Source of the DNA: Promethearchaeati archaeon | GTDB taxonomy: Archaea > Asgardarchaeota > Atabeyarchaeia > Atabeyarchaeales > Atabeyarchaeaceae | Reading direction: 5' to 3' | DNA: 14,432 nt | Assembly: GCA_019058495.1 (NCBI GenBank) | Contig: JAHPYV010000053.1 | Span: 1 to 14,432, forward strand | Shown here: positions 1 to 14,432 of the stretch, in pieces | Layout of the letters: every line of letters begins with the position of its first letter | How positions within the stretch are numbered: position 1 is the stretch's first letter | Position numbers and translations under genes: made by a program | Notes under the pieces: model-generated | What the model was told of the DNA's origin: nothing | Database searches by the model: none | What the model saw: only the letters and a program-made list of their open reading frames with translations

Positions 1-218
1 GCTAGAGAGGAAAATAGGCACTAGGTAGCAACATAGTTCCCTTAAACCGAGGCTCCTTGTCTCCTCGATTTTTCGTCCAACAAGATTTCCAGTCGCCTAT
101 CCTCGACATCGAATATCAGGTATCCAACTATTCTTTAAAAGGATTATCAACGCGCATTTTGCTGAGAAAGCCCAGATCAGAGGGGCCAGAGTCGCCCGCC
201 GTGCATCACAGATAATTG

Positions 219-896
219 TTACCTTCTTATCTGATTTGCGTTCGTGAAGGCGATGTCGGCAGCAGTCATTTCCTCCAATACTCGGGAGACAATGCCCTCG
301 GGTGTTCCCACAGGTCTGGTAAGATCAATGAGAAGCACAGGATCAAATCCTAGCTTTTTTCCGTCCATCGCACTGTAGAATACGCAGTAGTCCAGTGCAA
401 GGCCGCATAGGAATATTCGTTTGATCCCAATAGTGCGTAGATAACCTGAAAGACCTGTTTCGGTTTTCTTATCGTTCTCTATGAAGGCTGAATAGCTGTC
501 AATCTTTGGGTTAGTTCCCTTGCGGATTATTAGCCTTGCTAGTTTTGTATCCAACTCGGGATGGAAATCTGCTCCAGCGGTGCCGCGCACGCAATGATCT
601 GGCCATAGAATTGGGCCTATCCCTTCAGCTGAATACGGTGCATAAGGTTTTTTCCCTTTGTGTGCACTTGCGAAAGAATGATGGTTTGGGGTATGCCAAT
701 CCTGAGTGAGAATGACGCTGCTTGCGACCCCATAGAACTTGACAACCAATTGATTGATGCCAGGCACGATAAGATCTCCTTCTGCGACAGGGAGAGCGCC
801 GTGTGGCATGAAATCATTTTGAACATCAATAATGATTAGCGCATCATTCGAGTGAATTCCTATGTCCTTTGTGATCCGTACGTCTGACGGTTTCAT
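219..896 (-). CDS. pncA: Nicotinamidase/pyrazinamidase (isochorismatase-fold hydrolase)
   Basis: 225-aa ORF with an ATG start. It has the ALIIIDVQNDF motif (catalytic Asp), the QDWHTPNHHSF metal-binding motif, the IIRKGTN Lys and the LCGLALDYCV catalytic Cys, which together are typical of PncA. Confidence 0.85.
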   Translation of the reverse strand: MKPSDVRITKDIGIHSNDALIIIDVQNDFMPHGALPVAEGDLIVPGINQLVVKFYGVASSVILTQDWHTPNHHSFASAHKGKKPYAPYSAEGIGPILWPDHCVRGTAGADFHPELDTKLARLIIRKGTNPKIDSYSAFIENDKKTETGLSGYLRTIGIKRIFLCGLALDYCVFYSAMDGKKLGFDPVLLIDLTRPVGTPEGIVSRVLEEMTAADIAFTNANQIRR

Positions 897-1027
897 AGGT
901 GGACACTCCTAGGGCGTGATGTGTGAATTATCTGTATACGACTGAAAAAGAAACAAAGGAACAATTTAAGATTTGTTCCGATGAAATGAGTGAGAAATAC
1001 TAAGAAATTATTCTTGTCTGTGGTAAG

Positions 1028-2692
1028 TCATAATGATTCAGCATTAAACTCAAATGCGGCTACCGGGTATTCCAGCTCAAAGTTTGTTATCACTTCTGGA
1101 TGAAGCTCCCCGAGAATTGCGATTCTCTTGCCTCGTATGAAACTTTCAGCGGCTCTACCTCTAATGAAGCTTGGGTGTTCTATTTGTGAAAAAGATGTTT
1201 GATTTGCATTCTTGCCGAAACCACCCATGAAAGCTAAGAATACGGACTTTATCTCTGCAAAATTGGCGGTCGGGTGTATTGTGACCGCAGAACAGTGGAG
1301 TTCTTGACCCACACCTGTCTCAGATCCAGAATCTGAACAGATTACATCTCCTACTTCGAATACTCTTTGGGGAAGTTTCTCATGTTTGTTTGTTCTCAGC
1401 GTTCTAACTAGACCTGGAAGTAATGATTCCCTCAGGATCGTGTACTCCGAACTTACTGGATTTAGTAGCTTAACTAAGGGTGTCCCGGTTGTCCTCATGT
1501 ACTGGTAATGTTCTGTTTCGTTAGTAAGTGTGAAGTTTATGACTTCTTGGTATCCCAACCCAATCATGAGTCGCCTGCTTAAGGACTCAAGTCGTCTGGA
1601 AATGTTGGTTCTTCCTATCGTTAAGGATGAGGGCAATATGGGCTTGATTCTGAAGTATCCGTATCCTATTGCAACTTCTTCGGCTAGATCTACTTGGTGG
1701 AGAAAATCGACTCTAAATGGAGGAACCAATACGCTTAGTTTGTCTTCGTTGCTTTTCCTTACGTCGAAACGAGCTTTTCTGAGGCTCAGCGCAATCTCAT
1801 CTTGTGAGAGTCGGAGTCCCAATATCTTGTTGACATAAGCAGATGAGAGTGATAACTCCTTAGGTTTTAGAATCGGAGTTACATTCTTCTTCTCGCTTTC
1901 AGCCACAGTTATAGATTCTATCTTTCCGCCCATATCGGCAAGCTGTGTGACGATGAGGTTCAAGGCGTTGTTAATGGAATTGAGGGATGTTCCAGTCACA
2001 TCTATGAACAGGTTTCTAGTGGTTTCAGTTATTTGGGTCGCTGTGCCATTAATTATCGGTGGAAACGAGAGAACCTGGGTATTCTTGTCGACTATTATCG
2101 GGAATTTGGGAAATCCTTCAACAAGATGCTTGTAAGCAATTCCCTTGGGATGAGTGGAAAGGATCTCGTCTAGGCTTAGCTCTCTGTCTCCGCCCAGTGG
2201 AGTGAACTTCAGTGACTTTGGGTCAACCGCTTTGTACTTGAAAGGCGGCGTCACCGTGTCTAGGTTGTGCAATCCTATCGAAGCTTTTCGCCGGTCCCTG
2301 CCAATAGCCCAGTGTATGTCCTCTTGGGCGGCCATTAGTTCTTCTATGTCTGAGTCTGAAAGCTGGATATCTCTGCAGACGGCACCCACAATATAGGGTC
2401 TCACGTTCTTGACTGATTGTTCAACGATTAGTGATACCGTTCCCTTTGTAACATCGTATTTGGGCAGCCCGATTTCTATCTCCTGCAAGCCCTTGAGTGC
2501 TCGGGCGATGCCTACTTGGCTGGAGAAATCGGGTCGATTCGGGTTGTATTCTATTTTGATCCAGTCCTCGCCTTTCTCTTCGATCTCAACGCCTATCCAT
2601 GGGATCGCTTCTTCAAGTTGTTCGATCGTTATGTGTCTACCTAGTAGTGAAGACATTTTTTCCAGACTTAGTTTGACAACTGGCACCTTCAA
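1028..2692 (-). CDS. pheT: Phenylalanine--tRNA ligase beta subunit (archaeal type)
   Basis: 554-aa ORF of typical archaeal PheT length. The N-terminus (M)PVVKLSLEKMSSLLGR resembles archaeal PheT starts. It lies 8 nt downstream of pheS in the same orientation and ends with TGA. The true start may be the GTG at 2686 rather than the TTG at 2692. Confidence 0.93.
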   Translation of the reverse strand: MKVPVVKLSLEKMSSLLGRHITIEQLEEAIPWIGVEIEEKGEDWIKIEYNPNRPDFSSQVGIARALKGLQEIEIGLPKYDVTKGTVSLIVEQSVKNVRPYIVGAVCRDIQLSDSDIEELMAAQEDIHWAIGRDRRKASIGLHNLDTVTPPFKYKAVDPKSLKFTPLGGDRELSLDEILSTHPKGIAYKHLVEGFPKFPIIVDKNTQVLSFPPIINGTATQITETTRNLFIDVTGTSLNSINNALNLIVTQLADMGGKIESITVAESEKKNVTPILKPKELSLSSAYVNKILGLRLSQDEIALSLRKARFDVRKSNEDKLSVLVPPFRVDFLHQVDLAEEVAIGYGYFRIKPILPSSLTIGRTNISRRLESLSRRLMIGLGYQEVINFTLTNETEHYQYMRTTGTPLVKLLNPVSSEYTILRESLLPGLVRTLRTNKHEKLPQRVFEVGDVICSDSGSETGVGQELHCSAVTIHPTANFAEIKSVFLAFMGGFGKNANQTSFSQIEHPSFIRGRAAESFIRGKRIAILGELHPEVITNFELEYPVAAFEFNAESL

Positions 2693-2700
2693 ACGCCTCT

Positions 2701-4284
2701 TTACTGCATCTCAGGAATTGTTCTCAGCCAGTTCAACTCATTCTTGTAGGGAGTTCGGATATCGACACCTTCTGTCCTTATCATGAAGAGCCTCTCTAGC
2801 CCTTGTCCCCATGCTAAGACTGGATACTTGATTCCTAGGGGAAGGGTGACTTCGGGTCTAAAGATCCCCATGCCTCCGAGTTCTAGCCATCTTCCGACAT
2901 CGCTCTCCTTTCCGTTTTCACCAGTGTTCTTCCTCTCGATGTATACGACAGCCTCAGCGCTAGGCTCGGTGTATGGGAAGTATGAAGGCCAGAATCGAAC
3001 TTTCTCGAATCCGAGGCGGTTGTAGAATTCCTTGAGTATACCCATGAGGTCTGCTAGTGAGGCATCCTTATCCATTATTATTCCTTCGATTTGATGGAAC
3101 TCGGCGAGGTGTTTGTAATTGACTTTTTCGTTTCTGTATACTCGATCGATGGAGAATACTTTCACTGGCGGGTTGGGGTGGGAGGCGAGGTACTTGATGG
3201 TGGTTGCCGTGGTGTGCGTTCTCAAGATTACTTGTCGCGCAATATCCTTGCTCCATCTGTAACCCCATCCGGTTGATCCAGTTTCCCAACCGTCCTCATG
3301 TGTTTGCGCGACTCGTTTGACTATGCTTTGATCGGGAAGCTTAGCCTTTGAAGGGGATGTGAGGTAGAAGGTATCATGCATCTCCCTGGCAGGGTGATCT
3401 TGGGGTTGAAAGAGTGCATCAAAATTCCAGAAGGCAGATTCAACTAGGTTTCCTTTGATCTCCTCGAAACCTAGCTCGAGGAAGATCTCTCTTACTTCTT
3501 CGATTAACTCAACTATCGGATGATATTTCGCGATGAAAGTTGGCTCTGCTGACGCTGAGACATCGAAAGTTTTGAATTTCGCTTTCTTCCATTCGCCAGA
3601 CCTGATCATGTCAGGGGTGAGCTGAGTGACTTCCTCAACGACTACTACGCCACGGCGTACAGCCTCAAGTCCGACATCTGTTATTTCAAGAGTCCTTGAC
3701 TTGCGAGTTGCGACGTGTATCAGGTTCCGTTTCAGAAGAGACTCCGCCTCTATCTTTTGCTCTTGGTCGAGTGACGATAACGTGATCTCGGACACAGTTG
3801 ATAATTTTGTGATCATCTCTTCATCTGGGCCTTTTTGAGGTTTGCTGGTTGATCTTAGATAAAGCTTCCCGGCTTCCTTCGTTGTGTTGGCCCAATTCTT
3901 TCTTTTCAGCCAGCCTAGTGCCAGAGTCGCCTCATCGTCTGCGAGATGTAAATCATGCTTTAGGGAGTCGAATTCGCTGTTTCCTCCTTTTTTCTGAACG
4001 AGATAGTCTATCACTATTCTCTCAGGGAGACCGACTTTGGAGCGTATCATGCCTTCTTCGGTTAGTCTCGCATATTTCTCCTCTGATTCACGGATTGATA
4101 TCAGATCCTTCTCAGCTAGAGAAGTTGATGCTCCAAAAATAGTAGCTTGGTCGAGTCCCAGAGTCTCTACGAGCTCGATCACGTTGACTCTTTTCTTCAA
4201 CTTGGCCAAGGCATCCAGAACAGTTCCTTCAGCCCGGCTCAAACTTACGGGATTTGACGCTGTCATGACGTTTCTTCTCCCCAA
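2701..4284 (-). CDS. pheS: Phenylalanine--tRNA ligase alpha subunit (archaeal type)
   Basis: 527-aa ORF with class II aaRS motifs (FQPQDHPAREMHDTFYL, and a GMGIFRPEV..LAWGQGLERL C-terminus). The N-terminal winged-helix repeats are typical of archaeal PheS. The ATG at 4266 (MTASNP...) is a more likely start than the TTG at 4284. Confidence 0.93.
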   Translation of the reverse strand: MGRRNVMTASNPVSLSRAEGTVLDALAKLKKRVNVIELVETLGLDQATIFGASTSLAEKDLISIRESEEKYARLTEEGMIRSKVGLPERIVIDYLVQKKGGNSEFDSLKHDLHLADDEATLALGWLKRKNWANTTKEAGKLYLRSTSKPQKGPDEEMITKLSTVSEITLSSLDQEQKIEAESLLKRNLIHVATRKSRTLEITDVGLEAVRRGVVVVEEVTQLTPDMIRSGEWKKAKFKTFDVSASAEPTFIAKYHPIVELIEEVREIFLELGFEEIKGNLVESAFWNFDALFQPQDHPAREMHDTFYLTSPSKAKLPDQSIVKRVAQTHEDGWETGSTGWGYRWSKDIARQVILRTHTTATTIKYLASHPNPPVKVFSIDRVYRNEKVNYKHLAEFHQIEGIIMDKDASLADLMGILKEFYNRLGFEKVRFWPSYFPYTEPSAEAVVYIERKNTGENGKESDVGRWLELGGMGIFRPEVTLPLGIKYPVLAWGQGLERLFMIRTEGVDIRTPYKNELNWLRTIPEMQ

Positions 4285-4407
4285 GGAGGAGACCTTGAGT
4301 GACGATGAAATTCAGATGAAAAGGTTCAGGCTTTCATCACAGAAGTTGACTAAACGTCATTAAAACTCTTTGGTCAAGATCTCGGCAACTTGAGTTGTTG
4401 TGGAAGA

Positions 4408-4905
4408 TTAGTGATTGCTTCTCTTCTGCTGTGTTGCCTCGATTTCCCTAAGCGCGGTTGATTTGATTGGTTTTCCATTCCTTCCTAGTATCATTCTGAT
4501 TATGACTGGGCGAAGTGGTTTCAGACCTTTCTTACTCCTTTCTTGATTTATGCTTTTGACTACTGGAGCTGTCTCTACGCTGACCACAAGTGCCTCGATT
4601 CGAGGGTCGTCTGCAGTAATCCCAAACTGGCTTGATATTGGGATTATCTCTGCTCTCTCAATGCATCCTTCAGACGTTAAGAACTTCTTAATGTCATCAA
4701 CCCTTCGTTCATAGGGGTATATCAGCTCTTTCCTGAGTTTCTCAGTCAGCAGTTTCTTAGTTGCTACGCCGACAATCACTCTTTCGCCTACTTGGCATGC
4801 TTTGCGGAGCAATGCTTTGTGTCCCTCATGTAGATGGTCGAATGTTCCCCCTACGGCAACACATTTGAATCTTTGCATGTGAACCTTCTCCCCTGCAATG
4901 TGCAA
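4408..4905 (-). CDS. coaD: Phosphopantetheine adenylyltransferase, archaeal cytidylyltransferase-family PPAT
   Basis: It has the GGTFDHLHEGHKALL nucleotidyltransferase H-x-G-H motif. Its size of about 155-165 aa is typical of archaeal PPAT. The likely true start is the ATG at 4878 (MQRFKCVAVGG...). Confidence 0.75.
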   Translation of the reverse strand: MHIAGEKVHMQRFKCVAVGGTFDHLHEGHKALLRKACQVGERVIVGVATKKLLTEKLRKELIYPYERRVDDIKKFLTSEGCIERAEIIPISSQFGITADDPRIEALVVSVETAPVVKSINQERSKKGLKPLRPVIIRMILGRNGKPIKSTALREIEATQQKRSNH

Positions 4906-4985
4906 CTAAGCGAATGACTTAATTAAAAAGTAGTGTTAAGTGATAAAAGGATATTCTTAAGGTAAATCTCAAATCCGGGGATCCT

Positions 4986-5903
4986 TTGAATTTGAGAGAC
5001 ATGAACCAAGACAGCGGAGAACTATATGCCTATAGGAAAGCTGGGAAGATTGCATCCCTTGTCAGAACAAAAGTCGCTCAGCTGACAAGACCAGGAGTAC
5101 CGATCATAAAGATTTGCGAAGAAACAGAGAACATGATCAGAAAGATGGGTGGATTCCCGGCTTTCCCTACGAATGTTTCCGTGGATTACGTGACGGCTCA
5201 CTACACTTCGCCGCCGAATGACGAGACTACGATACCCGAAGACGGGCTTGTTAAAGTTGATCTTGGTGCTTCAATCAGCGGTTACTTGTCGGATACGGCG
5301 GTCACAGTCGATCTCAGTGGCAAAGAGATCGCCATGGTCGATACTGCTGAGAAAGCTCTGAGAGCAGCAATGTCGATCATAAAGGCTGGAATCAACGTAG
5401 GTCAAGTTGGAAAAGCAATAAGTGACACGATAGTGAGTGCTGGATTCAAGCCTATATCGAACCTTGGTGGGCATAGCCTGGCTAGATATGAGCTGCACTC
5501 AGGAACCTCGATTCCGAATGTCCTGACACATTCAGGGCAGGTGATGAGGGAAGGGGGAGTCTACGCTGTTGAACCATTTGTTACTAAGGCAGATGGAAAA
5601 GGATACGTGAAGGACACAGACAGCGCCTATATCTTTAGTTGCACTGATAGCATGCCCCCGGCGAGTCCGAAGGATAACCCTGAAGCGGAGTTGTTAACCG
5701 TATTGAAGAAAAGATTCGGTATACTTCCATTTTGTCTTCGATGGCTGGGCAGCGATTTCAATCTCAAGCAATTCAAGAGACTGATCAGATCAGGTTCAGT
5801 AATTTCGTATCCTGTTCTTGTGGAGGCTGGAAAAAGAATAGTGGCGCAGGCGGAGCATACCGTGCTAGTCAAGAAATATGGCTGCGATGTATTAACAACC
5901 TGA
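4986..5903 (+). CDS. map: Methionine aminopeptidase, type 2 (archaeal)
   Basis: It has the FPTNVSVDYVTAHYTSPP, VKVDLGASISGYLSDTA, GHSL..YELHSG and AQAEHTVLV motifs of type 2 MetAP. The likely start is the ATG at 5001. It ends with TGA at the expected length. Confidence 0.93.
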   Translation: MNLRDMNQDSGELYAYRKAGKIASLVRTKVAQLTRPGVPIIKICEETENMIRKMGGFPAFPTNVSVDYVTAHYTSPPNDETTIPEDGLVKVDLGASISGYLSDTAVTVDLSGKEIAMVDTAEKALRAAMSIIKAGINVGQVGKAISDTIVSAGFKPISNLGGHSLARYELHSGTSIPNVLTHSGQVMREGGVYAVEPFVTKADGKGYVKDTDSAYIFSCTDSMPPASPKDNPEAELLTVLKKRFGILPFCLRWLGSDFNLKQFKRLIRSGSVISYPVLVEAGKRIVAQAEHTVLVKKYGCDVLTT

Positions 5904-5949
5904 AAGCAAAGTAAGATCTAAGCTCAGGTCAAGTCGGATTCTCTTGTCT

Positions 5950-6354
5950 TCAGGATGCCCGAAGTTGAGTTTTCTGAATTGGAATCGTGTATATTGATCT
6001 GATAAACATCTCGCCTTCACATTCCTTGCACTTTCCAAGTGTCTTGTACATGTAGTCTCCCCTCTGAAAATCCCTCACTTCGGTATATTGACATTTATCG
6101 CACTTGATCACGGACACTGTTCTGAAAAGAGGGTTAACTACAGGTGTTCTCCACGCACTGCCGATGAGCGAGAAGAAGAAAGAGAATATGAGAAATCCTA
6201 CTATGATGCTTATTTGATCACCGTTCTGAAAACCTGTGTAGAGATAGGAGAGACCGAATATGAGGCAGAATATTGCTATCATGGCCGCGACTATTCGTGC
6301 GCCTCTAGCGCCTCCAGTTGGCTTTGGTCGTTCGCTGTCGCTCAACAGAATCAC
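5950..6354 (-). CDS. Small membrane protein with a C-terminal CxxC...CxxC zinc-ribbon; function unknown
   Basis: 134-aa ORF with two hydrophobic helices (IVAAMIAIFCLIFGLSYLY and IIVGFLIFSFFFSLIGSAW), followed by CDKC-x21-CKEC. It lies 11 nt downstream of the DUF1512-like gene on the same strand. Confidence 0.55.
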   Translation of the reverse strand: MILLSDSERPKPTGGARGARIVAAMIAIFCLIFGLSYLYTGFQNGDQISIIVGFLIFSFFFSLIGSAWRTPVVNPLFRTVSVIKCDKCQYTEVRDFQRGDYMYKTLGKCKECEGEMFIRSIYTIPIQKTQLRAS

Positions 6355-6365
6355 CTCTCTTGGTC

Positions 6366-7538
6366 CTAGCCGACTCCTACTGTGTTTCCAATTCCGGCGA
6401 TGATCACCGTTGATCCAGGTTCGGTCCTTTCCCTTACGATCTCTCTGACTCTTTCAGAAACCTTGTCAGCTGCGTCAGTGATCTCCTTTTTCATTGGCAT
6501 GACTGCTTCCTCAATTGCTTCCTTCACTAGTATTGCATCTAGGGGGATCTTGTATTTCACCGCAGCTTGCTCGATCTTGTATTTTTCAGGACCTGGGTCT
6601 CCTATAGCTGCTCCAACACCTTCGACGACATCGCCAGTTGTCTCACCTTCGAGTTTGCCAGCCGCGTCGATCATGATGATTCTTGAGATTTGACCCTTGT
6701 ATTCTTCGACCAATCTTTCAATAGCTTCTCCAGGTTTGCCTACGCGGCTACCAGGTCCCTTGGCTCTGACTAAGAGGACTTTTCTTTTATCAAGTTCAAT
6801 TTCAGCAACTGCAACTTCCTTTGCGACGTCGTCAGTTATTATTGGTTTGTCGCCATTTTTCTTGAATTCATCAACCAGACGAGCTGTAACAAGTGGTCCC
6901 AGCCCATCGCCTATTGGTTTTCCCAATGAGAATGCTTTCAGTGCTTCGAAGTACGCTTTGGCGATTCTCATGATCTGGTGCAGTTGCATTTGCACCTGCA
7001 GGGTAATATACATGTTCTTTTCCTTCTTTGCGAGAAGATAGTAGTGCCTAATGACTTTGAAAACAAAATAGACGGCGCTCGCAGCCTCAATTGTCCCCTC
7101 AAGATTCGATGCATCATCTTTGCTGGCGCCTGGAGCCATTCTCGCAACGGCATCTTCATAACCTAACTTTCTTACATCCAAGATGTGATCCAGTCTCTGA
7201 ATGACGCCGGCAGGGTCAAGGCTAACTGGCTCAATTGTTACAAACTCCATCATCGAAGCAACTGCTTTCGATGGATCTTCTGTAGGTTTTCCGAGATCCT
7301 TGACTGTCTTGATAGTTATTTCTTTTGATTCTTCTGACATCCGGTTCAGCTTGAACAGAGCAGCCTCTATCTGCTTCGTCATTCTCCAAACCATAATCGC
7401 TTGCTGGTAGAACGCGAAGATGAAGAAGGCACCGTAGAATAACAACATGAGAATAAAACTTAACGGATCACTACCTAAACCAAACTGCAGTGGCAAAGCT
7501 GACATATTTTCGGTGTCGCCTCTCTTATGACTATTCAT
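6366..7538 (-). CDS. Conserved archaeal membrane-anchored protein, DUF1512-like; function unknown
   Basis: 390-aa ORF with an ATG start, an N-terminal TM helix (FILMLLFYGAFFIFAFY) and a long soluble domain. The family assignment is recalled from memory rather than searched. The call that it is coding is firmer than the family name. Confidence 0.6.
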   Translation of the reverse strand: MNSHKRGDTENMSALPLQFGLGSDPLSFILMLLFYGAFFIFAFYQQAIMVWRMTKQIEAALFKLNRMSEESKEITIKTVKDLGKPTEDPSKAVASMMEFVTIEPVSLDPAGVIQRLDHILDVRKLGYEDAVARMAPGASKDDASNLEGTIEAASAVYFVFKVIRHYYLLAKKEKNMYITLQVQMQLHQIMRIAKAYFEALKAFSLGKPIGDGLGPLVTARLVDEFKKNGDKPIITDDVAKEVAVAEIELDKRKVLLVRAKGPGSRVGKPGEAIERLVEEYKGQISRIIMIDAAGKLEGETTGDVVEGVGAAIGDPGPEKYKIEQAAVKYKIPLDAILVKEAIEEAVMPMKKEITDAADKVSERVREIVRERTEPGSTVIIAGIGNTVGVG

Positions 7539-7707
7539 TATTACAGTGGGTAATCAGTAAACAAGAATAATGTAACCGTGCTTTTTATAAACTTGTGTAT
7601 TTAGGCAATCAACTAACAGAAACCATTGAAAAGAGTTTGAGAACGCATGGCTCTTGGCGAAAGCCTCGAGCGAGACAGATTGCAAGCAAATTGAAATGAA
7701 TCACAAA

Positions 7708-7873
7708 CAGCTTCTAGGTGGCAACATTCCGTGATCGGAACGGGAACGGGTGTTACTCCCCGCCTATGACCGAGCCCGCAGGCTCAGCCGTCCAAGCTTC
7801 CCGAGGGGTCTCCCACCTCAGTACAACAAGGATCGCGCGAGGACTTAACTTTCACGTGTTGCCACCAAAGCTG
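7708..7873 (-). other. Processing stem with a bulge-helix-bulge motif enclosing the permuted 5S core
   Basis: On the minus strand, GGTGGCAACA (7866-7857) pairs with TGTTGCCACC (7726-7717) over 10 bp. An outer helix pairs CAGCTT (7873-7868) with AAGCTG (7713-7708). Inside the stem come a 3-nt bulge GAA (7729-7727), a 4-bp helix CGTG (7856-7853)/CACG (7733-7730), and a 3-nt bulge AAA (7852-7850) on the opposite strand. Confidence 0.65.
7728..7850 (-). rRNA. Circularly permuted 5S rRNA gene (123-nt core)
   Basis: The minus strand reads AGTTAAGTCCTCGCGCGATCCTTGTTGTACTGAGGTGGGAGACCCCTCGGGAAGCTTGGACGGCTGAGCC-TGCG-GGCTCGGTCATAGGCGGGGAGTAACACCCGTTCCCGTTCCGATCACGGA. The first block is the canonical 5S 3' half (GUUAAG, helix II 3' strand UCCUCGC, GUACUG, helix IV hairpin, GGGAAGCUUGG, helix I 3' strand). 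The second block is the canonical 5' half (helix I 5' strand, GGUCAUAG, helix II 5' strand GCGGGGA, ACACCCGUUCCCGUUCCGAUCACGGAA). Helix I (GGCUCGGUC/GACGGCUGAGCC) is capped by the tetraloop UGCG. Total length is 123 nt, the normal 5S size. The region is GC-rich relative to its flanks. Confidence 0.8.
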
Positions 7874-7898
7874 TGTCTACTATCAAAGGATATAATTC

Positions 7899-7905
7899 TT
7901 ATAAA
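7899..7905 (-). promoter_or_regulatory. Candidate TATA box for the 5S transcription unit
   Basis: TTTATAA on the minus strand lies 26-32 nt upstream of the base of the outer processing helix (7873). This is the usual archaeal TATA-to-start spacing. Confidence 0.4.
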
Positions 7906-8015
7906 CCTAGCGATAATGCTCCAGTTAAGAGAGACGAAAAGCTTGGCCGCGTCGTTCATTCTCATTCGTCTTAGAGAAACGCTTAATTATGTGGATTATT
8001 GCATTTTATCTTGCA

Positions 8016-8223
8016 GGGGCTGTAGCCTAGCCTGGTTGGGCATCGGGCTCCAGTTATGTTGTATCCGTTTAACGCGACCGTAATCGGGATGACGAGTTAC
8101 TGGAGCGGCCCATACCGGAGAAACCCGAAGAGTGAATCGCTCGATGCGGGTTCACGCGGAAGTCAGGAGTTCAAATCTCTGCGCGGCTCTGCGCGCGGAG
8201 TGAGTATCTCCTCAGCCCCACCA
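8016..8223 (+). tRNA. tRNA-Trp (anticodon CCA) with three introns and an encoded CCA end
   Basis: The manual fold is as follows. Acceptor GGGGCTG (8016-8022) pairs with CAGCCCC (8213-8219). The D arm is GCCT-AGCCTGGTT-GGGC. The anticodon stem TCGGG (8043-8047) pairs with CCCGA (8124-8128), and the loop is CT-CCA-G with A38 at 8123. The T arm is AGGAG-TTCAAAT-CTCCT, followed by A73 and CCA (8221-8223). There are three insertions: 69 nt at 37/38 (8054-8122), about 31 nt in the variable loop (about 8131-8161, leaving AGGTC), and 31 nt in the T loop/stem (about 8177-8207; the boundary is ambiguous because ATCTC is repeated). A T5 run follows at 8224-8228. Confidence 0.85.
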
Positions 8224-8346
8224 TTTTTCTATTGCTTTTACGCTGAAATCAGAACACAAGAGAGGGAGGAGAGTCCCTAGTGTGTGATGGTAGTATGTCA
8301 TATTTGTCGTGGAAATGCAATTTCGGTTCGGTTATCAGTATCCTGC

Positions 8347-8535
8347 TTATCGTTGCATAGTCGTCTGTGATCTTTGTTTTTGCCAGTAGTTCTTTCCTGG
8401 TCTACGGACGCGGAGTCTGTCGCACTTGTTAGCTACGGTGCCACCTTTTGAAACGCGGTATATCTCGGATATATGTTCGAGAGGTATTCTCCACACTAGT
8501 TTTTCTAGTTCTTGCCTGGTGATATTTCTCCAGTT
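8347..8535 (-). other. Same-frame continuation of the homing endonuclease ORF beyond its TAA: 62 codons encoding a helix-turn-helix-like tail
   Basis: Manual translation directly after the TAA (8538-8536), in the same frame, gives NWRNITRQELEKLVWRIPLEHISEIYRVSKGGTVANKCDRLRVRRPGKNYWQKQRSQTTMQR, then TAA at 8349-8347. The pattern ELEKLVW..I...Y.VS...V...C..L.V..P...YW resembles a C-terminal DNA-binding module found on free-standing nucleases. That resemblance is recalled from memory. Confidence 0.55.
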
Positions 8536-9294
8536 TTATTGCAGTTCTCTTCTTCGTTGTCTTTTTTCTGGTGTCAAGGCTTCATTGGATCTTTGGTGCT
8601 TATCTTCTAGGTTGCAGGGGTGCCACCGTTTTCTTGGCATACTGTCTTTGTAGTTTTCCATCATTTCGTTGAACAAGTCGGCTCCTAAATGCAGGTAGTA
8701 TTCTACTCCTTTGATCCATCGCCCATTGAGCCTGCATTCGCGTTTGCTTATGTGGACCTTGAATTTAAGATTGAACCGCTTCTTGATCTGCTTGAGGAAT
8801 AACTTGCTGCCGGAGAAGAGTCTCGTCGTCCCTTGTTTTCCGTCCCCATCGAAGTACCCGAGCAGGAATGCGAGTTCTAGGTCTCGCCGCTTAAGGCTAG
8901 GGTATTTGATGATTTTGGATTTCCGGCATTTTAGTCCGTGGCTTAGTAGATCATTAGTTATGTTCTTACATGCAAAACTAACCAGAGTGCGTTCCGTCTT
9001 CTCGTGGATGCGATGCCTTTTCCTATTCTTGTCTAGTCCTAGGAAATCACAGAATCTATCGATGGATTCTTCGTCTTTTCGTTTGAGTTCAAGTTCCAAT
9101 CGTGTTTTCGTTCCGATTTCAACCATTGTAGCGTCAGCGTAGAGGAATCCGAGCCAGTATGCCTTGTCTTTCGTGTTAATATTGTGAAAGTAATCGATTT
9201 TCAGGTCAGGATGAACAGTCATCCTCTTCCACCGACGGTACCATTTCTTTGTTAGGTGGTTCAAGGTATGACTGGGTTTCTGTTCCAAGACCAT
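8536..9294 (-). CDS. Double-motif LAGLIDADG homing endonuclease (free-standing)
   Basis: 252-aa ORF with an ATG start and two LAGLIDADG motifs: YWLGFLYADAT and AFLLGYFDGDGKQG. The spacing and basic linker are typical of monomeric enzymes. It lies between two paralogous tRNA genes, on the opposite strand. Confidence 0.85.
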   Translation of the reverse strand: MVLEQKPSHTLNHLTKKWYRRWKRMTVHPDLKIDYFHNINTKDKAYWLGFLYADATMVEIGTKTRLELELKRKDEESIDRFCDFLGLDKNRKRHRIHEKTERTLVSFACKNITNDLLSHGLKCRKSKIIKYPSLKRRDLELAFLLGYFDGDGKQGTTRLFSGSKLFLKQIKKRFNLKFKVHISKRECRLNGRWIKGVEYYLHLGADLFNEMMENYKDSMPRKRWHPCNLEDKHQRSNEALTPEKRQRRRELQ

Positions 9295-9323
9295 TGGCCC
9301 TCATTCAATCGTTACTGTCGATC

Positions 9324-9331
9324 TTATATAA
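9324..9331 (-). promoter_or_regulatory. Candidate TATA box for the homing endonuclease gene (leaderless transcript)
   Basis: The palindromic TTATATAA lies 30-37 nt upstream of the ATG at 9294. Confidence 0.4.
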
Positions 9332-9441
9332 GGCTCAATTCAAACGCCTTTCTCGCTTACATGTTGCGGTTTTGTTTCAATCCTTCTTCTTAAAGTGCCC
9401 AGAGGATATTTTGCAGGGAACTTTTCACCACAGATTATGGC

Positions 9442-9679
9442 GGGGCTCTGTCTTGGTCCTTAACGGGAAGTGAGTGGTTGGCTGTATCACTGTCCTTGGC
9501 GCGCTTTAGCGCGGAAACAATGACTTAGCCGATGGGCTTCAGAGAATTGAGACTGCTCAAATTGGACCGTTAAGGGATGACGAGTTTCTGGAGCGGCCTT
9601 GAAAAAACCCGTAGAGTGAATCACTGAGAACAGGAACTTCACGCGAAAACCAGGAGTTCAAATCTCCTTGGCCCTACCA
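9442..9679 (+). tRNA. tRNA-Trp-like paralog with anticodon UCA (candidate UGA-reading tRNA); multiple introns and an unresolved 5' third
   Basis: The 3' two-thirds fold cleanly. The anticodon stem ATGGG (9532-9536) pairs with CCCGT (9608-9612). The loop is CT-TCA-G with A38 at 9607, and a 64-nt intron occupies 9543-9606. A variable-region insertion lies within 9613-9651. The T arm is AGGAG-TTCAAAT-CTCCT (9652-9668). The acceptor 3' strand is TGGCCCT, followed by A73 and CCA (9677-9679). GGGGCT at 9442-9447 matches the tRNA-Trp(CCA) acceptor 5' strand and can pair with the 3' strand using G-U pairs. The introns share long identical blocks with the 8016-8223 gene. The D-arm region (9448-9531) needs one or two extra non-canonical introns and could not be resolved by eye. 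Confidence 0.55.
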
Positions 9680-9911
9680 CTTCTTCTAACGTTCTCCCGA
9701 ATAACTGGCCTGATAGTGTCTCTCGCGGAACTCTCAAGAATCCACATCCCCAGAAACGATTTTCCTGTTGCGCAAATATCGCCGAAGAAACCATCTTAGG
9801 CTAGTTAAACCTCTCGCATGGTCTGGAAATATCAAGGGTCTAAACAGTTCCCTGACTAGATCCTAGTGGAATACCAATAATAAGCTGTTCCTGCAACATT
9901 CACTCGGTAGC

Positions 9912-9920
9912 TTTTTATAC
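9912..9920 (+). promoter_or_regulatory. Candidate TATA box for the secreted PKD-protein gene
   Basis: TTTTTATAC lies about 27-35 nt upstream of the GTG at 9947. This supports 9947 as the real (leaderless) start of the downstream gene. Confidence 0.4.
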
Positions 9921-9946
9921 TAAGTCGTCGCAAATTCTGAGCGAGG

Positions 9947-10153
9947 GTGTCGGAGGAGTTCATTAATTTGAGAAGAGAGTACAGGTGTTTTTCAATAGTG
10001 ATCGTGACTATGATGTTCTTCTTTGCGTTTGTTCAATACCCAGCCACAGCTGCAGCAATAGCTAATAATGCTGTATCAAGCCCTAATGGTACTGTATCAA
10101 ATACAACTGGGACAGCAACAACTGCCAACAGCGGAAGCCAGAGTTGCCCCTAA
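9947..10153 (+). CDS. N-terminal signal-peptide segment of the PKD-domain protein, out of frame with the main ORF
   Basis: The ORF starts with GTG. It has a basic n-region (NLRREYR), a hydrophobic core (CFSIVIVTMMFFFAFV) and an ATAAA cleavage-like site, followed by a Thr/Asn/Ser-rich linker. It ends at TAA immediately after a C4 run and overlaps the start of the 620-aa ORF. Confidence 0.6.
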   Translation: MSEEFINLRREYRCFSIVIVTMMFFFAFVQYPATAAAIANNAVSSPNGTVSNTTGTATTANSGSQSCP

Positions 10154-12006
10154 ACGGAGGATGCAAAGCTTGCAGTGCTAAGCATAGTTCAGCTGGCGTG
10201 AGCACAGCTTCTCCTAAGATCAATGGTACGCTGCTCACAGACCAGCAAATCCAGGATCTCAAGGCCAAAGCCATGAAATCAAGCGACTTCAAAGCACTTC
10301 TACATAGGCTACGCGGCGACAACTATGTGATACTACTTGATGATGCGAAAGGCTACAGGATGACTATAGATGAAGGTGGTCAGTTGAACACGACGCTTTT
10401 CCTCACTGCAAAACTTCAGTTCAATGGTTCACTAGCGAGTGATCTGGTATTCGAGGGTGGATCCGTGATATTCGCACTTAACAACGGAGGTTCATTCTCC
10501 AACTTGGCAGTATCGGAAATCAAGGTAGGATACGTGGAACTCTTGACAGAGTTTTCGGTGAAAGATGGGAAATTCTACTGTAAATCATTAACTGCGCCCG
10601 ATGATTTCTTTGGTTGCAACGATCCATATTGGCTAGGGGTTGCAGTCATCGCAGCGACATATGCACTCAGATTTCTTTCTTGCGCCTTATGTGCGTTGTC
10701 GATTCCCATTGATTGGGTGCCAGGTATGGTGGGTATTGATATCATAGCATGTTCAGATTGTTTCACAGATGCATGGCGCGATATAATTCGGTCTCAAACC
10801 AATTGGTGCAGTGACCCTGTCATCACTCAGTTCACAGCCGCGTCCGGTGGATACACAAACTCTTGGATTTATCCGTTCACGGCTAGTGCAACCATTGCTC
10901 CCACCTCTGGTCCAGCGACCTCGCTATCGTACCAATTCAAGTGGGGTGACGGTCAGTCAGATATAATGTCGGGTTACTCTTCTGGCGCGTCGGCGACAAC
11001 TGGTCATTATTATGCTAGTCCAGGGACTTATTCTGCCTACGTACACGTAGTCGACAACAATGGAAACTGGGCTGACTCGCCTACGAAGACGGTGACCATA
11101 ACCCAAAACCCAAGCCAGCCGCCCGGAGGCGGTTGCCCAGTTGTTGCACCTTGGAACGGTACTAACTTCGTGGCCGACAACAACATTCTACCATCGTCAG
11201 AAAATCTACCAAATGTCAATGCTGATGTAAAGGACTTCTATCAGCTTCGACTTCCTTTGCAGCAATATGGGACAAGCTACGCTCTCCAGTTGCAGGAAAA
11301 TGAGTATGAACAAGACTACTTCAACCAGGTAAGTCTTACGGCAGTGTACCATGAAGCCGGTGTGAGCGTTGCTACTTCGCCGTACGGGCAGATATTTACA
11401 TATTCCAACCCCGCGTCCAGCAAACTGGCTGCTGATGAGCCTGGAGTTAATGTCGCCGATTGGATCAAATCGCCTGACGATACCGTGTTCTATCAAGGAG
11501 TGCCAGGTCGATCGCTGTACTTGTCGTTCAGTGCACTTAAGCACCCCGAATACGCCAAGTTGCTGATAAGTGAAGACATGATTCGCAAGTATTCTACGCA
11601 CGTTTCGGTGCTTGGTCAAGACTACCAGTGGCATGACGTTGGCGTGATTGAGCCAAGGGCAAACTGGTATACGTCAGCATTGGACATCTCTCGCTATGTG
11701 CCGAGAGGCAACTCAGATATCATTGTTAAACTCTACTTCACTGGCTTTGATAAGATTGATTGGGTATCCGTGGACGACTCAGCACCATCGAACGTGATTG
11801 TCCAGTGCCTAGATCTAGTCTCCGCTTTTGACCAGCACGGTGTTAACGTCGCCCTCAGCTTGGTTCGTCGCGATGGGAACTATGCGGTCATTTCGCCGGG
11901 TCAGTACCTGACGCTGTACTTCGAATACGAGAAACCGCCAACGAACATGGTGCAAGACTTCATCCTATCAGTCACAGGTCACTACGTACATCTAGGAACT
12001 CCATAG
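10144..12006 (+). CDS. Secreted or surface protein with a PKD domain, a Cys-rich hydrophobic segment and an uncharacterised C-terminal domain
   Basis: 620-aa ORF. Its frame is open from 10087, and the TTG at 10144 is only the first formal start. A PKD-type signature (YQFKWGDGQSD...GHYYASPGTYSAYVHVVDNNGNWADSPTKTVTI) lies at about 10820-11110. The roughly 290-aa C-terminal region after PPGGGCPVVAPWNGTNFVADNNILP was not recognised. Confidence 0.8.
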   Translation: MPLNGGCKACSAKHSSAGVSTASPKINGTLLTDQQIQDLKAKAMKSSDFKALLHRLRGDNYVILLDDAKGYRMTIDEGGQLNTTLFLTAKLQFNGSLASDLVFEGGSVIFALNNGGSFSNLAVSEIKVGYVELLTEFSVKDGKFYCKSLTAPDDFFGCNDPYWLGVAVIAATYALRFLSCALCALSIPIDWVPGMVGIDIIACSDCFTDAWRDIIRSQTNWCSDPVITQFTAASGGYTNSWIYPFTASATIAPTSGPATSLSYQFKWGDGQSDIMSGYSSGASATTGHYYASPGTYSAYVHVVDNNGNWADSPTKTVTITQNPSQPPGGGCPVVAPWNGTNFVADNNILPSSENLPNVNADVKDFYQLRLPLQQYGTSYALQLQENEYEQDYFNQVSLTAVYHEAGVSVATSPYGQIFTYSNPASSKLAADEPGVNVADWIKSPDDTVFYQGVPGRSLYLSFSALKHPEYAKLLISEDMIRKYSTHVSVLGQDYQWHDVGVIEPRANWYTSALDISRYVPRGNSDIIVKLYFTGFDKIDWVSVDDSAPSNVIVQCLDLVSAFDQHGVNVALSLVRRDGNYAVISPGQYLTLYFEYEKPPTNMVQDFILSVTGHYVHLGTP

Positions 12007-12010
12007 AAAT

Positions 12011-12039
12011 GGGAGGGGTCGTTCCTCCTATTCTTTTTC
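12011..12039 (+). terminator. Hairpin plus T-tract downstream of the PKD-protein gene
   Basis: GGAGG (12012-12016) pairs with CCTCC (12024-12028) across a 7-nt loop, followed by TATTCTTTTTC. Confidence 0.4.
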
Positions 12040-12139
12040 TGAGCTAAAACCTAAGTTGGGGCAAAACCATGAGTAGTGTTTGTTTTTGGATTCTGCGTGG
12101 GAATGTGTTTCACGGTGTTCTCATAGGAGGTAACGTGAA

Positions 12140-12718
12140 GTGAGTAACGCGCGCTATACAAAAGCTGACTACGTTGAAGCTATTCTTGTAGGTATCCTCG
12201 TCACAGTGTTGATTACTTCATTGCAGTTTCTACTACTGAACACAATTCCTTCAGATCTGACCATTTTCGGATCTTTCTTTGCCGGCGTTCTTGCAGGCGG
12301 AGTATTAGTTCGCCTCAGAAAAAAGCGCCCCCCTGAAAAGCCTCCAGAGGATTGGATGCCAAAAAGAAGAAATGCTCAGCTCGTAGCCTTCGGAGTTGTC
12401 ATCGGGATTCTGGCTATTCTCATTACGCTGTTTCAGGTCGCATTTTCTTTAACGCTTCTGGCGCTCGCGGTGTTTGCTGGCTTGAATTTGGGAGTTTTTG
12501 TCTTAGTGTTAAGACCTCCAGGGTACTCTGAAACAATAGTCCGAGGAGCAAGACAAGCGTTATACGTGATTTTGTTTGGAAGTGAAGCTTTTCTCTCTGT
12601 CGCAGTTCTCTTGCAGGAACTGCCATATGTCCTACCAACAACGGGGCTAACTGCTATAGTTATGATAGTGACTGTCGCAGCGATAACTTACTATATGGGA
12701 AGACTAACTATGACTTAA
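12140..12718 (+). CDS. Polytopic membrane protein; function unknown
   Basis: 192-aa ORF with a GTG start, preceded by GGAGGT at 12126-12131. It has about 5-6 hydrophobic helices and a basic loop (RLRKKRPPEKPPEDWMPKRRN). Confidence 0.6.
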   Translation: MSNARYTKADYVEAILVGILVTVLITSLQFLLLNTIPSDLTIFGSFFAGVLAGGVLVRLRKKRPPEKPPEDWMPKRRNAQLVAFGVVIGILAILITLFQVAFSLTLLALAVFAGLNLGVFVLVLRPPGYSETIVRGARQALYVILFGSEAFLSVAVLLQELPYVLPTTGLTAIVMIVTVAAITYYMGRLTMT

Positions 12719-12771
12719 TCACTCATCACTATATTGGGATAGACCCACAATGCCACACTTTCTGTTCTAGA

Positions 12772-13302
12772 TTGGACCAGAGGAATTCCAATGCCCAAGA
12801 GTCGAAGGCAAGTATTCGACAACGGAGACGCAGAACTCTCCTTCTGTTGGGAACTGGGATCTCAGTACTCGTGATAATGTTCTTGTTCATCAGTCAGGAA
12901 AATGGGTCTACGGAAGTTGGCTATCCTGCCCCGAACTTTGCGCTGACTAATGTTCAAACTGGCAGTTCCTTCGGGTTGAGTGATTTCAAGGGAAAGATCG
13001 TTGTCATTGAGTTTATGGCTACTTGGTGTTCTCATTGTAGTGACCAGGTGAGCGAACTCAAGAAAGTAAGGTCTCAATTCAGCAACGACTCGCTCATAAT
13101 AGTCTCGATAAGCTCAGATCCAGGCTATGATACGGATTCAAAGCTTATTCAATTCGCGGCGAGTGAAGGGATTGACTGGTACTTGGCGAGGGACACTGCA
13201 AATGTTACTCAAGCATATAATGTAAGTAACATTCCGACAACTTTCTTGGTTGACAGAGCGGGGAAAGTCGCAGCCTTTTTCATTGGTTTTGTATCTGCTT
13301 AG
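12772..13302 (+). CDS. Membrane-anchored thioredoxin-fold thiol-disulfide oxidoreductase (TlpA/ResA/redoxin-like)
   Basis: It has an N-terminal TM anchor (LLLLGTGISVLVIMFLFI). It also has APNFAL....GK.VVIEFMATWCSHC with a WCxxC active site, and a YNVSNIPTTFLVDRAGKV cis-Pro region. The start codon is uncertain (TTG at 12772). Confidence 0.8.
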   Translation: MDQRNSNAQESKASIRQRRRRTLLLLGTGISVLVIMFLFISQENGSTEVGYPAPNFALTNVQTGSSFGLSDFKGKIVVIEFMATWCSHCSDQVSELKKVRSQFSNDSLIIVSISSDPGYDTDSKLIQFAASEGIDWYLARDTANVTQAYNVSNIPTTFLVDRAGKVAAFFIGFVSA

Positions 13303-13359
13303 GATCTCTCCAGCAAAATCAATTCAACTCTATAGTCTTTAATAGAGGAGGAGGCTGAC

Positions 13360-14079
13360 GTGGTTTCGGCAGAGATGATTCTCATTTCGTATCTCTTGGG
13401 AGTAGTTGCGTCCCTTTCCCTTTGTGTTATTCCTCTCCTCCCACTTTCGGTTCTCATGATGACGGATTCTGAAGAGAACTCTTCTAGAGGTATTGCAGTG
13501 GGCTTCTCTGTCACCCTTGGAGTCTTGACTTCCTTTTCAATATTCACCATCCTGTCTGGTTATGTTTCATTTTTCTTGATCACAAACTATGTTGTTATCG
13601 CTTTTGTTCTAGGATTGATCATGGTTCTTTTTGGTTTGATTGCACTGAGCCCAGCGAGAAAAGGGTATGCACACCTGCATGAAGCTACCAGAAGAATTTT
13701 CTACCGTCTGAAGATAAGGGAGGGGTCCCTCTTTTGGGCGTTTGCGGCAGGATTGTTGTTCGCGCTTGTCTCCGCCCCTTGTGGTGCTTCAATCTATGTG
13801 AGTGCTATCATTATATTTTCTGTTGAGGAGAATGTTCTTTTCAAGGTGTTGCTCGCATTAATGTTTTCCTTTGGAGTGGGGACGATCTTTGTCATGATCG
13901 GTACGGTGTTCCAGCGATTTCAGCACAAGAATCCGGATAGATACATCAGGATAGGTTTCATCGTGGGCAGGGCAGCCACGTTAGCCATAGTAATCCTAGG
14001 TCTCTACATGATGATCCCTTTTATCTTGACATTCACCCGATTACTAGCTGGTTGTATCGTGGTCCAAGAGGTTATGTAG
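13360..14079 (+). CDS. ccdA: CcdA/DsbD-family transmembrane thiol-disulfide electron transporter
   Basis: 239-aa polytopic protein with the two conserved Cys-Pro regions (SLSLCVIPLLPL and VSAPCGASIY). It has a GTG start preceded by GGAGGAGG at 13346-13353. It lies directly downstream of the TlpA-like gene. Confidence 0.78.
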   Translation: MVSAEMILISYLLGVVASLSLCVIPLLPLSVLMMTDSEENSSRGIAVGFSVTLGVLTSFSIFTILSGYVSFFLITNYVVIAFVLGLIMVLFGLIALSPARKGYAHLHEATRRIFYRLKIREGSLFWAFAAGLLFALVSAPCGASIYVSAIIIFSVEENVLFKVLLALMFSFGVGTIFVMIGTVFQRFQHKNPDRYIRIGFIVGRAATLAIVILGLYMMIPFILTFTRLLAGCIVVQEVM

Positions 14080-14432
14080 GTTCAAAAGGTAACAGTCTGA
14101 TTATTGTGAAGATGCGCAACGCGTATTGCCAGACCAATTATCATTCATGGTGATTGGGACATAAGACAGGATGGATGAGCGTCAATGCAGTGTATCATAA
14201 CAATCCAGGCTACCCGCCTATCTGGAATAAAGGAGAGTCGTTTTCTAATGTCCTGCAATTCAATGATAAGAACAGGTTCCTGGGCGGGTAGATGGAGAAG
14301 CATGTGGACCCTGAATTCAAAGATTTCTTGTCACCTCCAGTGCATGTGAGTCTTAGGAATCGGTCAGTTCCTCGGGGTCCCATAGGTGCGCCCTCCGAGG
14401 CTTTGGTGTGTCCTGACTTGGTTGAAGTAGAG

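Follow-up and report, generated by a model that had tools for sequence, protein, structure and literature searches.

In permuted transfer RNA (tRNA) genes, described for Cyanidioschyzon merolae and for tRNA-iMet and tRNA-Tyr of Thermofilum pendens, the 3′ half comes upstream of its 5′ counterpart, and the two halves share one promoter and are separated by a short linker (PMC3218864). Archaeal 16S and 23S ribosomal RNAs (rRNAs) are processed at a stem of leader and trailer sequences that contains a motif of the bulge-helix-bulge (BHB) type, at which EndA cuts and RtcB circularizes the excised RNA (PMC10515664, PMC12918454, PMC7758197). Archaeal 5S rRNA has been placed outside the BHB/circularization pathway in reviews and recent studies (PMC12918454). 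Here we describe a 5S rRNA gene of Promethearchaeati archaeon, a member of the Asgard class Atabeyarchaeia, which is encoded on contig JAHPYV010000053.1 of assembly GCA_019058495.1. The stretch analyzed comprises positions 1 to 14,432 of this contig, i.e. 14,432 nucleotides (nt), and is called the window throughout. The two parts of the gene are found in reversed order, and its ends can be drawn as a BHB. It is likely, as judged from the sequence, that the locus is a functional, circularly permuted 5S gene that is processed by BHB excision and ligation, and its closest analogue is the circularly permuted tRNA gene.

Unusual 5S rRNAs have been described in two further systems. In the permuted mitochondrial 5S rRNAs (mtPerm-5S) of brown algae and other stramenopiles, helix I is closed into a hairpin and the final RNA is permuted (PMC4267664). 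Circular RNA sequencing of Halobacterium and Sulfolobus revealed circular 5S species with heterogeneous junctions, which were read as minor or degradation forms (PMC12558985). Full-text literature searches did not retrieve an archaeal permuted 5S gene, and 5S is not mentioned in the two Atabeyarchaeia genome papers.

The 5S gene of the window is located on the minus strand, and its 3′ part (7850-7781) precedes its 5′ part (7776-7728). Standard tools (Rfam, ARAGORN) overlook both this gene and the adjoining tRNA-Trp gene. At the Rfam gathering threshold and with ARAGORN, nothing was called across the window, and a permissive Rfam scan of the entire window, with E-values up to 1, gave no match either. 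The 5S halves were exposed only by a permissive scan of 1 kb, in which two matches to RF00001 were found in reversed order on the minus strand, i.e. model positions 27-51 at 7751-7727 and model positions ~51-120 at 7850-7782. The halves score 22.0 and 20.4 bits, and the genomic sequence stays below the gathering score of 38 bits because of the gene order, not because of divergence. The two half-matches abut at 50|51, with A7728 corresponding to model position 50 and A7850 to position 51. If the RNA is cut after the second bulge nucleotide on each side and the ends are joined, each RF00001 model position is used exactly once, in collinear order. An earlier interpretation made without database searches (the sequence-only reading) had proposed that joining ...CACGGA (ending at 7728) to AGUUAAG (starting at 7850) restores the conserved 5S junction, and the Rfam alignment bears this out.

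The upstream part of the gene (7781-7850, Rfam positions 51-120) contains the 3′ strand of helix II, helices V and IV, loop E, and the 3′ strand of helix I, as indicated by the partial Rfam match, a match to the covariance model R1 (see below), and covariation in helices II and IV. The downstream part (7728-7776, Rfam positions 1-50) contains the 5′ strand of helix I, loop A, the 5′ strand of helix II, helix III, and loop C, and it ends with ...CACGGA; it is supported by the Rfam match to positions 27-51 and by a second R1 match. The native 3′ and 5′ ends of the 5S are linked by a UGCG tetraloop of the UNCG type, which closes helix I (GGCUGAGCC-UGCG-GGCUCGGUC). This cap had been noticed in the sequence-only reading, but its position had to be corrected to 7780-7777. 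Folding of the 123-nt product (7850 to 7728) as a circle yielded the 5S three-way junction, and the junction with helices I-V is borne out by the circular fold together with compensatory changes in helices I, II, and IV.

The covariance model R1 was built from nine rearranged 5S sequences, including that of the window. With a genuine bacterial 5S, its match ran through the junction in collinear order (39.1 bits, E-value 2e-7, model positions 22-119), whereas the permuted loci gave split double matches. This collinear 5S of Thermodesulfobacteriota, which was found in a genome scan (locus L013), shares 32 identical nt with the Asgard 5S (CACCCGUUCCCGUUCCGAUCACGGAAGUUAAG); these run collinearly across the junction, and this 5S served as a positive control. 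Two contigs of the respective Thermodesulfobacteriota genome bin end in collinear bacterial 5S (L010, 7263-7355; L013, 1-95).

The ends of the permuted gene are embedded in a BHB that spans 7866-7717 on the minus strand and consists of a 10-base-pair (bp) outer helix, a 4-bp central helix, and two 3-nt bulges on opposite strands. Read along the minus strand, the layout is ...AGCUUU GGUGGCAACA CGUG AAA GUUAAGUCC ... CCGAU CACG GAA UGUUGCCACC UA GAAGCU.... The outer helix is formed by GGUGGCAACA of the leader (7857-7866) and UGUUGCCACC of the trailer (7717-7726), both of which are predicted to be discarded, and is indicated by sequence, conservation, and covariation. In the central helix, CGUG of the leader (7853-7856), also predicted to be discarded, pairs with CACG (7730-7733). 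The 5′ bulge is AAA (7850-7852), with a predicted cut at 7851|7850 that leaves A7850 as the first retained nucleotide, and the 3′ bulge is GAA (7727-7729), with a predicted cut at 7728|7727 that leaves A7728 as the last retained nucleotide. Each bulge is located 3′ of its own central-helix strand, which is the canonical archaeal BHB arrangement. The geometry proposed in the sequence-only reading, with its helices, bulges, and coordinates, proved exact to the base. The outer helix can be extended by 6 pairs beyond a 2-nt bulge, with AGCUUU (7872-7867) pairing to GAAGCU (7714-7709) in the minimum-energy fold; this extension of the processing stem is optional and is not kept in all relatives. According to sequence, Rfam alignment, and fold, CACG is at the same time part of the 3′ strand of 5S helix III. 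Therefore, the BHB and the mature helix III are mutually exclusive, and the precursor must adopt the BHB fold first, whereas helix III can form only after ligation.

The organization parallels that of permuted tRNA genes in several respects (PMC3218864). Both parts are encoded on one strand with the 3′ part first, the native ends are separated by a short sequence, the termini of the precursor can pair into a BHB, and predicted cleavage and ligation bring the halves into order. As in the tRNA cases, there would be one promoter: a single conserved TATA box is found upstream of the gene and none between the halves, suggesting that the permuted 5S is made as one transcript. The putative promoter (7899-7912, minus strand) consists of the TATA box TTTATAA (7905-7899) and the preceding CGCTAGG (7912-7906). 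Each of the 11 Atabeyarchaeia sequences has kept the corresponding sequence CGCTARGTTTATAAGAA (promoter-like CGCTARGUUUAUAAGAA) at a distance of 36-40 nt upstream of the outer helix, and consensus and spacing are compatible with a function as promoter. The locus differs from permuted tRNA genes in three ways. The RNA is an rRNA; the arrangement is conserved across classes, while the tRNA cases are scattered among single genes; and the linker is a conserved 4-nt UNCG tetraloop, for which no removal step of the RNase P/tRNase Z type is known, so that the circle may be the end product.

Compared with the archaeal 16S and 23S rRNAs, the locus has the same type of leader/trailer processing stem with a BHB, and the EndA and RtcB steps are predicted. 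The 16S and 23S rRNAs are, however, encoded collinearly and ligation joins their natural ends, whereas in the permuted 5S ligation would create an internal conserved strand. With mtPerm-5S the locus shares the closure of helix I into a hairpin and the location of the ends of the molecule elsewhere (PMC4267664). In contrast to the locus in the window, the ends of mtPerm-5S are at the junction of the alpha and gamma domains, and neither a BHB nor ligation plays a part. The break in the permuted gene of the window falls inside a BHB, between helix III and loop B, and would be sealed according to the prediction. In permissive Rfam scans of the window no organelle-type 5S family was found, which is a weak negative, since overlapping matches of the same clan are merged in the output. 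The circular 5S species of Halobacterium and Sulfolobus are covalently closed archaeal RNAs with 5S sequence, as is predicted here, but they stem from collinear genes and not from an obligatory, gene-encoded BHB pathway.

The cut rule was calibrated with the adjoining tRNA-Trp(CCA) gene (8016-8222, plus strand), which contains a canonical 37/38 intron (8054-8122) and two further introns. The anticodon stem is formed by 8043-8047/8124-8128, the central helix by CUCC (8048-8051) and GGAG (8117-8120), and the bulges are AGU (8052-8054) and AAA (8121-8123), a geometry identical to that of the 5S BHB. The anticodon loop has the 7-nt sequence CUCCAGA, and therefore the cuts in tRNA-Trp must fall after the second nucleotide of each bulge. 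ARAGORN called tRNA-Trp(CCA) after 8054-8122 and the two other introns had been removed, and the stem, central helix, and bulges given for this tRNA in the sequence-only reading hold. The CCA end is encoded, and the extra introns are found in the variable region (~8131-8161) and in the T arm (~8180-8209), with approximate bounds. About 300 nt from this intron-rich tRNA, an open reading frame (ORF) for 252 amino acids (8536-9294, minus strand) has a marginal match to Pfam LAGLIDADG_3 (23.4 bits, cut-off 22.5); the genes at the matching position in relatives have only weak matches to HTH_3.

The proposal that this rule rebuilds the 5S junction to the nucleotide is supported with respect to the second nucleotide, but not with respect to the window as its source. 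The product obtained from the window is CACGGAAGUUAAG no matter whether both bulges are cut after their first, second, or third nucleotide, so that the three are not discriminated. The discrimination comes from the relatives, in which the 5′ bulge is AAA or AGA, with an invariant A at the third position, and the 3′ bulge is GAA, GAU, or GAG, with an invariant GA. Only a cut after nucleotide 2 yields the invariant canonical junction CACGGAAGUUAAG in all 11 distinct Atabeyarchaeia sequences; the retained bulge nucleotides are invariant and the discarded ones are variable. The predicted ligation junction is ...CCGAUCACGGA|AGUUAAGUCC... in the window and CCGUUCCGAYCACGGA|AGUUAAGNCCUCGCGCG across relatives. 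The corresponding genomic boundary sequences are GGCAACACGUGARAGUUAAG and CACGGANUGUUGCCAC, and the cap sequence is GGCUGNNNNUNCGNNNNCGGUC.

We estimated how often such structures are to be expected by chance. The bare BHB geometry (outer helix of at least 9 bp, span of 20-300 nt) has three matches in the window, compared to 0.84 expected from shuffled sequences, and therefore the geometry alone is not rare. The two matches other than the 5S BHB (13305-13698, minus strand) are located in purine-rich coding sequence, share one arm, and are probably due to chance. The probability that the BHB geometry coincides with precisely those two positions at which joining makes the 5S collinear is ~1e-7 per position pair.

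For a comparative analysis, syntenic loci were gathered via homologues of the adjoining DUF1512 protein, which also marks the lineage. In all syntenic Atabeyarchaeia loci fetched, the permuted gene is located upstream of the DUF1512 gene; these loci represent 11 distinct sequences and include two complete genomes (CP147779 and CP147780). The identity of the leader and trailer helix strands is 0.92-1.00, compared to 0.39-0.56 for the adjacent flanks, and the strands are as conserved as the 5S body. Helix I contains four compensatory pairs around an unchanged 4-nt UNCG loop, and helices II and IV also covary. A metagenome scan with CGGGAAGCUUGGACGGCUG gave 11 matches, four of which are real, while the rest are chance matches, mostly in bacterial coding DNA. 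A genome scan with a 23-nt pattern from the 5′ half retrieved only two Atabeyarchaeia genomes and one bacterial 5S and does not represent a map of the distribution.

The complete genomes of two lineages, Atabeyarchaeia-1 and Atabeyarchaeum deiterrae, contain an insertion of 29-30 nt exactly at the predicted 5′ cut (L011, 230-429, minus strand; L005, 3654-3852, plus strand, identical to L012). The layout is CGUG-ARA-[hairpin]-CGUG-AGA-GUUAAG, i.e. the CGUG-ARA unit is duplicated. The closest 5S relatives of L011 (L006 and L009) do not have the insertion. In the insertion-bearing loci, a BHB that uses the first CGUG has almost the same energy as the minimum-energy fold. Once a first ligation has taken place, the insertion can be drawn as a canonical mini-intron that has a central helix, bulges, and an inner hairpin of its own. 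It may represent a mini-intron of the nested kind or a leader duplicate that has diverged. A mobile intron was also considered and is unsupported; a tandem leader copy that has diverged is closer to the appearance of the insertion.

The wider distribution was deduced from an R1 search of the syntenic loci of distant DUF1512 homologues. At least 14 distinct sequences, which represent three Asgard classes, have a permuted 5S together with a BHB and a UNCG cap, i.e. 11 from Atabeyarchaeia, two of the Odinarchaeia type, and one from Helarchaeota. In Odinarchaeia (L026, identical to L027 and L028), the outer helix is formed by GGUGGCAUCG and CGAUGCCACC, in an Odinarchaeia-like locus (L025) by GGUAGUAUCG and CGAUACUACC; both have CGUG-AAA and CACG-GAA as central helix and bulges and UUCG as cap. 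The assignment of L025 is based on shared gene order and on its DUF1512 protein, which is 67% identical to the Odinarchaeia protein. The Helarchaeota locus (L029, 9443-9599, minus strand), whose DUF1512 protein shares 95% identity with one that is labelled Helarchaeota, has an unrelated 13-bp outer helix of A and U, the central helix GCCG/CGGU, the bulges AAU and AAA, and again the cap UUCG. Its BHB and breakpoint are located 2 nt further 3′ than in the other lineages, with CACGGUAA|UUAAAC as junction, and this shift could be explained by sliding of the BHB or by an independent permutation.

The Odinarchaeia outer helix differs in sequence but has kept its complementarity, and the Odinarchaeia products fold as 5S circles. 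In an alignment of the 13 sequences from Atabeyarchaeia and Odinarchaeia, five of the ten pairs of the outer helix are changed on both sides. Overall, 98% of the cells are paired and 18 pairs have double changes, values that were reached by none of 500 shuffles. The linker always has exactly 4 nt and always is UNCG (UGCG or UUCG) in the three Asgard classes, while the sequence of helix I turns over. An intron-bearing tRNA-Trp adjoins the permuted 5S in the window (7717-8222), in L025 (12108-12482), and in L029 (9200-9599), and the 5S/tRNA-Trp pair is found close to genes for DUF1512, cytidylyltransferase, and PheRS. This shared neighborhood points to an old, orthologous locus.

Several observations speak against the interpretation of the locus as a permuted gene that is processed at a BHB. 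Of the two flanking helices of an archaeal hBHBh′ motif, the inner one next to the bulges consists of only three weak pairs (GUU/GAY, including wobbles); the outer helix is strong with its 10 bp. In one variant (L022/L024), the outer helix is interrupted by an A.C mismatch. Since the 3′ strand of the central helix belongs to the 5S, this helix is invariant across Atabeyarchaeia and Odinarchaeia, and covariation support for it comes only from GCCG/CGGU of Helarchaeota. The 4-bp central helix is missing from the nearest-neighbor fold, and the BHB-constrained fold is 4-9 kcal/mol above the minimum. The latter is weak evidence, because the genuine BHB of tRNA-Trp is penalized alike, by 7.9 kcal/mol relative to its own minimum-energy fold. 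Thermodynamic folding was therefore rejected as a test for BHBs: the central helix is never part of the minimum-energy fold, not even for the genuine tRNA-Trp intron. Furthermore, the sequence evidence would fit a stable circle and a circle that is later opened alike. Lastly, a diverged canonical 5S might be encoded elsewhere in the genomes, since the search for further copies covered the fetched loci and the 23-nt pattern and was not a scan of whole genomes. Within this scope, the permuted gene is the only detectable 5S of this archaeon. The 23-nt pattern has one match in each of the two complete Atabeyarchaeia genomes, and none of the fetched Asgard loci, including those of Odinarchaeia and Helarchaeota, gives a 5S call with Rfam.

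The following pathway would account for these results. The TATA promoter of the gene would give rise to one transcript that consists of leader, 5S positions 51-120, UNCG tetraloop, 5S positions 1-50, and trailer. Leader and trailer would pair into a canonical BHB, and EndA would cut after the second nucleotide of each bulge (7851|7850 and 7728|7727), releasing the 123-nt RNA. Cleavage by EndA at the bulges would leave 2′,3′-cyclic phosphate and 5′-OH ends. RtcB would then join A7728 to A7850 to give a continuous CGGA-AGUUAAG strand, whereupon helix III could form, and the product would be a covalently closed 5S with helix I capped by the tetraloop. In the KEGG table for Atabeyarchaeia-1, EndA (K01170) is represented by at least two genes, and RtcB (K14415) is listed as well (PMC11291895 supplement); in the Atabeyarchaeia-1 lineage 92-95% of the tRNA genes have introns (Atabeyarchaeia genome paper). 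All computable evidence agrees with the excision at the BHB and the end-joining to a collinear 5S that the sequence-only reading had put forward, and cleavage and ligation probably take place as described.

Whether the circle is also the final mature form is less certain, but we slightly favor this view. A serious alternative is that the circle is merely an intermediate and that a nuclease reopens it at or near the UNCG cap, resulting in a linear 5S with termini in helix I. Such a course would parallel the circular intermediates proposed for permuted tRNA precursors, from which the intervening sequence is then removed (PMC3218864; PMC4267664 discussion), as well as the circular intermediates of pre-16S rRNA. 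Nevertheless, we regard it as rather unlikely for three reasons. The constancy of the 4-nt UNCG linker over three classes, despite the turnover of helix I, is the pattern to be expected of a structural cap that is retained and not of a spacer that is discarded. A 5S can also function with helix I closed, as in the permuted mitochondrial 5S of brown algae (PMC4267664). Finally, circular 23S rRNA has been reported inside archaeal ribosomes (PMC12918454).

In a second alternative, EndA would cut but the ends would stay unjoined, and the product would be a linear permuted 5S in which helices I-III keep the RNA together across a nick between positions 50 and 51. The evidence on cut positions fits this equally well, and the brown-algal mitochondrial 5S is permuted in its final form without any ligation (PMC4267664). 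However, RtcB is encoded in the lineage; excised 16S and 23S rRNAs are reported to be circularized after BHB cleavage, and archaeal tRNA introns circularize at BHB motifs (PMC12558985). In addition, the break would fall between helix III and loop B, into a strand that is strongly conserved, and the 29-30 nt unit of Atabeyarchaeia-1 and -2 forms a canonical mini-intron only after the first ligation. We thus consider an unjoined product to be very unlikely.

Even less probable is a relic, a pseudogene, or an assembly artefact with incidental BHB-like pairing and a normal 5S elsewhere: neither half reaches the Rfam gathering score and the search for a second copy fell short of whole-genome scans, but the at least 14 distinct sequences come from independent assemblies, among them genomes that long reads had closed, compensatory substitutions are found in helices I, II, and IV as well as in the outer helix, the promoter is conserved, the 23-nt 5S pattern matches each complete genome only once, and no canonical 5S is found in any locus fetched from Asgard archaea.

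If excision and ligation of a permuted precursor are confirmed, this would be, according to the searched literature, the first cellular rRNA gene that is permuted in the DNA and needs EndA and RtcB to function, and its product would probably be a natural circular 5S rRNA. The phenomenon of permuted genes would be extended from tRNA to rRNA, in lineages with rampant tRNA introns. It is conceivable, but falls somewhat short of being probable, that at least three Asgard classes (Atabeyarchaeia, Odinarchaeia, and Helarchaeota), and possibly their ancestor, have no collinear 5S and contain a circular 5S made by EndA and RtcB in their ribosomes. In that case, the prokaryotes known to be closest to eukaryotes would require their splicing machinery for the production of ribosomes. 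Existing metatranscriptomes and cultured Asgard strains allow a direct test of the prediction, and the conservation over three classes offers a ready comparative data set.

The organization of the locus also accounts for the failure of standard pipelines to detect a 5S, and a tRNA-Trp, in this place. 5S rRNA is universal, and the quality standards for metagenome-assembled genomes ask for a 5S gene; the annotation of Asgard genomes is therefore affected. Opposite the 5S gene, an ORF for 121 amino acids (7718-8083, plus strand) runs into the tRNA gene and could be annotated as a protein, but it is almost certainly spurious.

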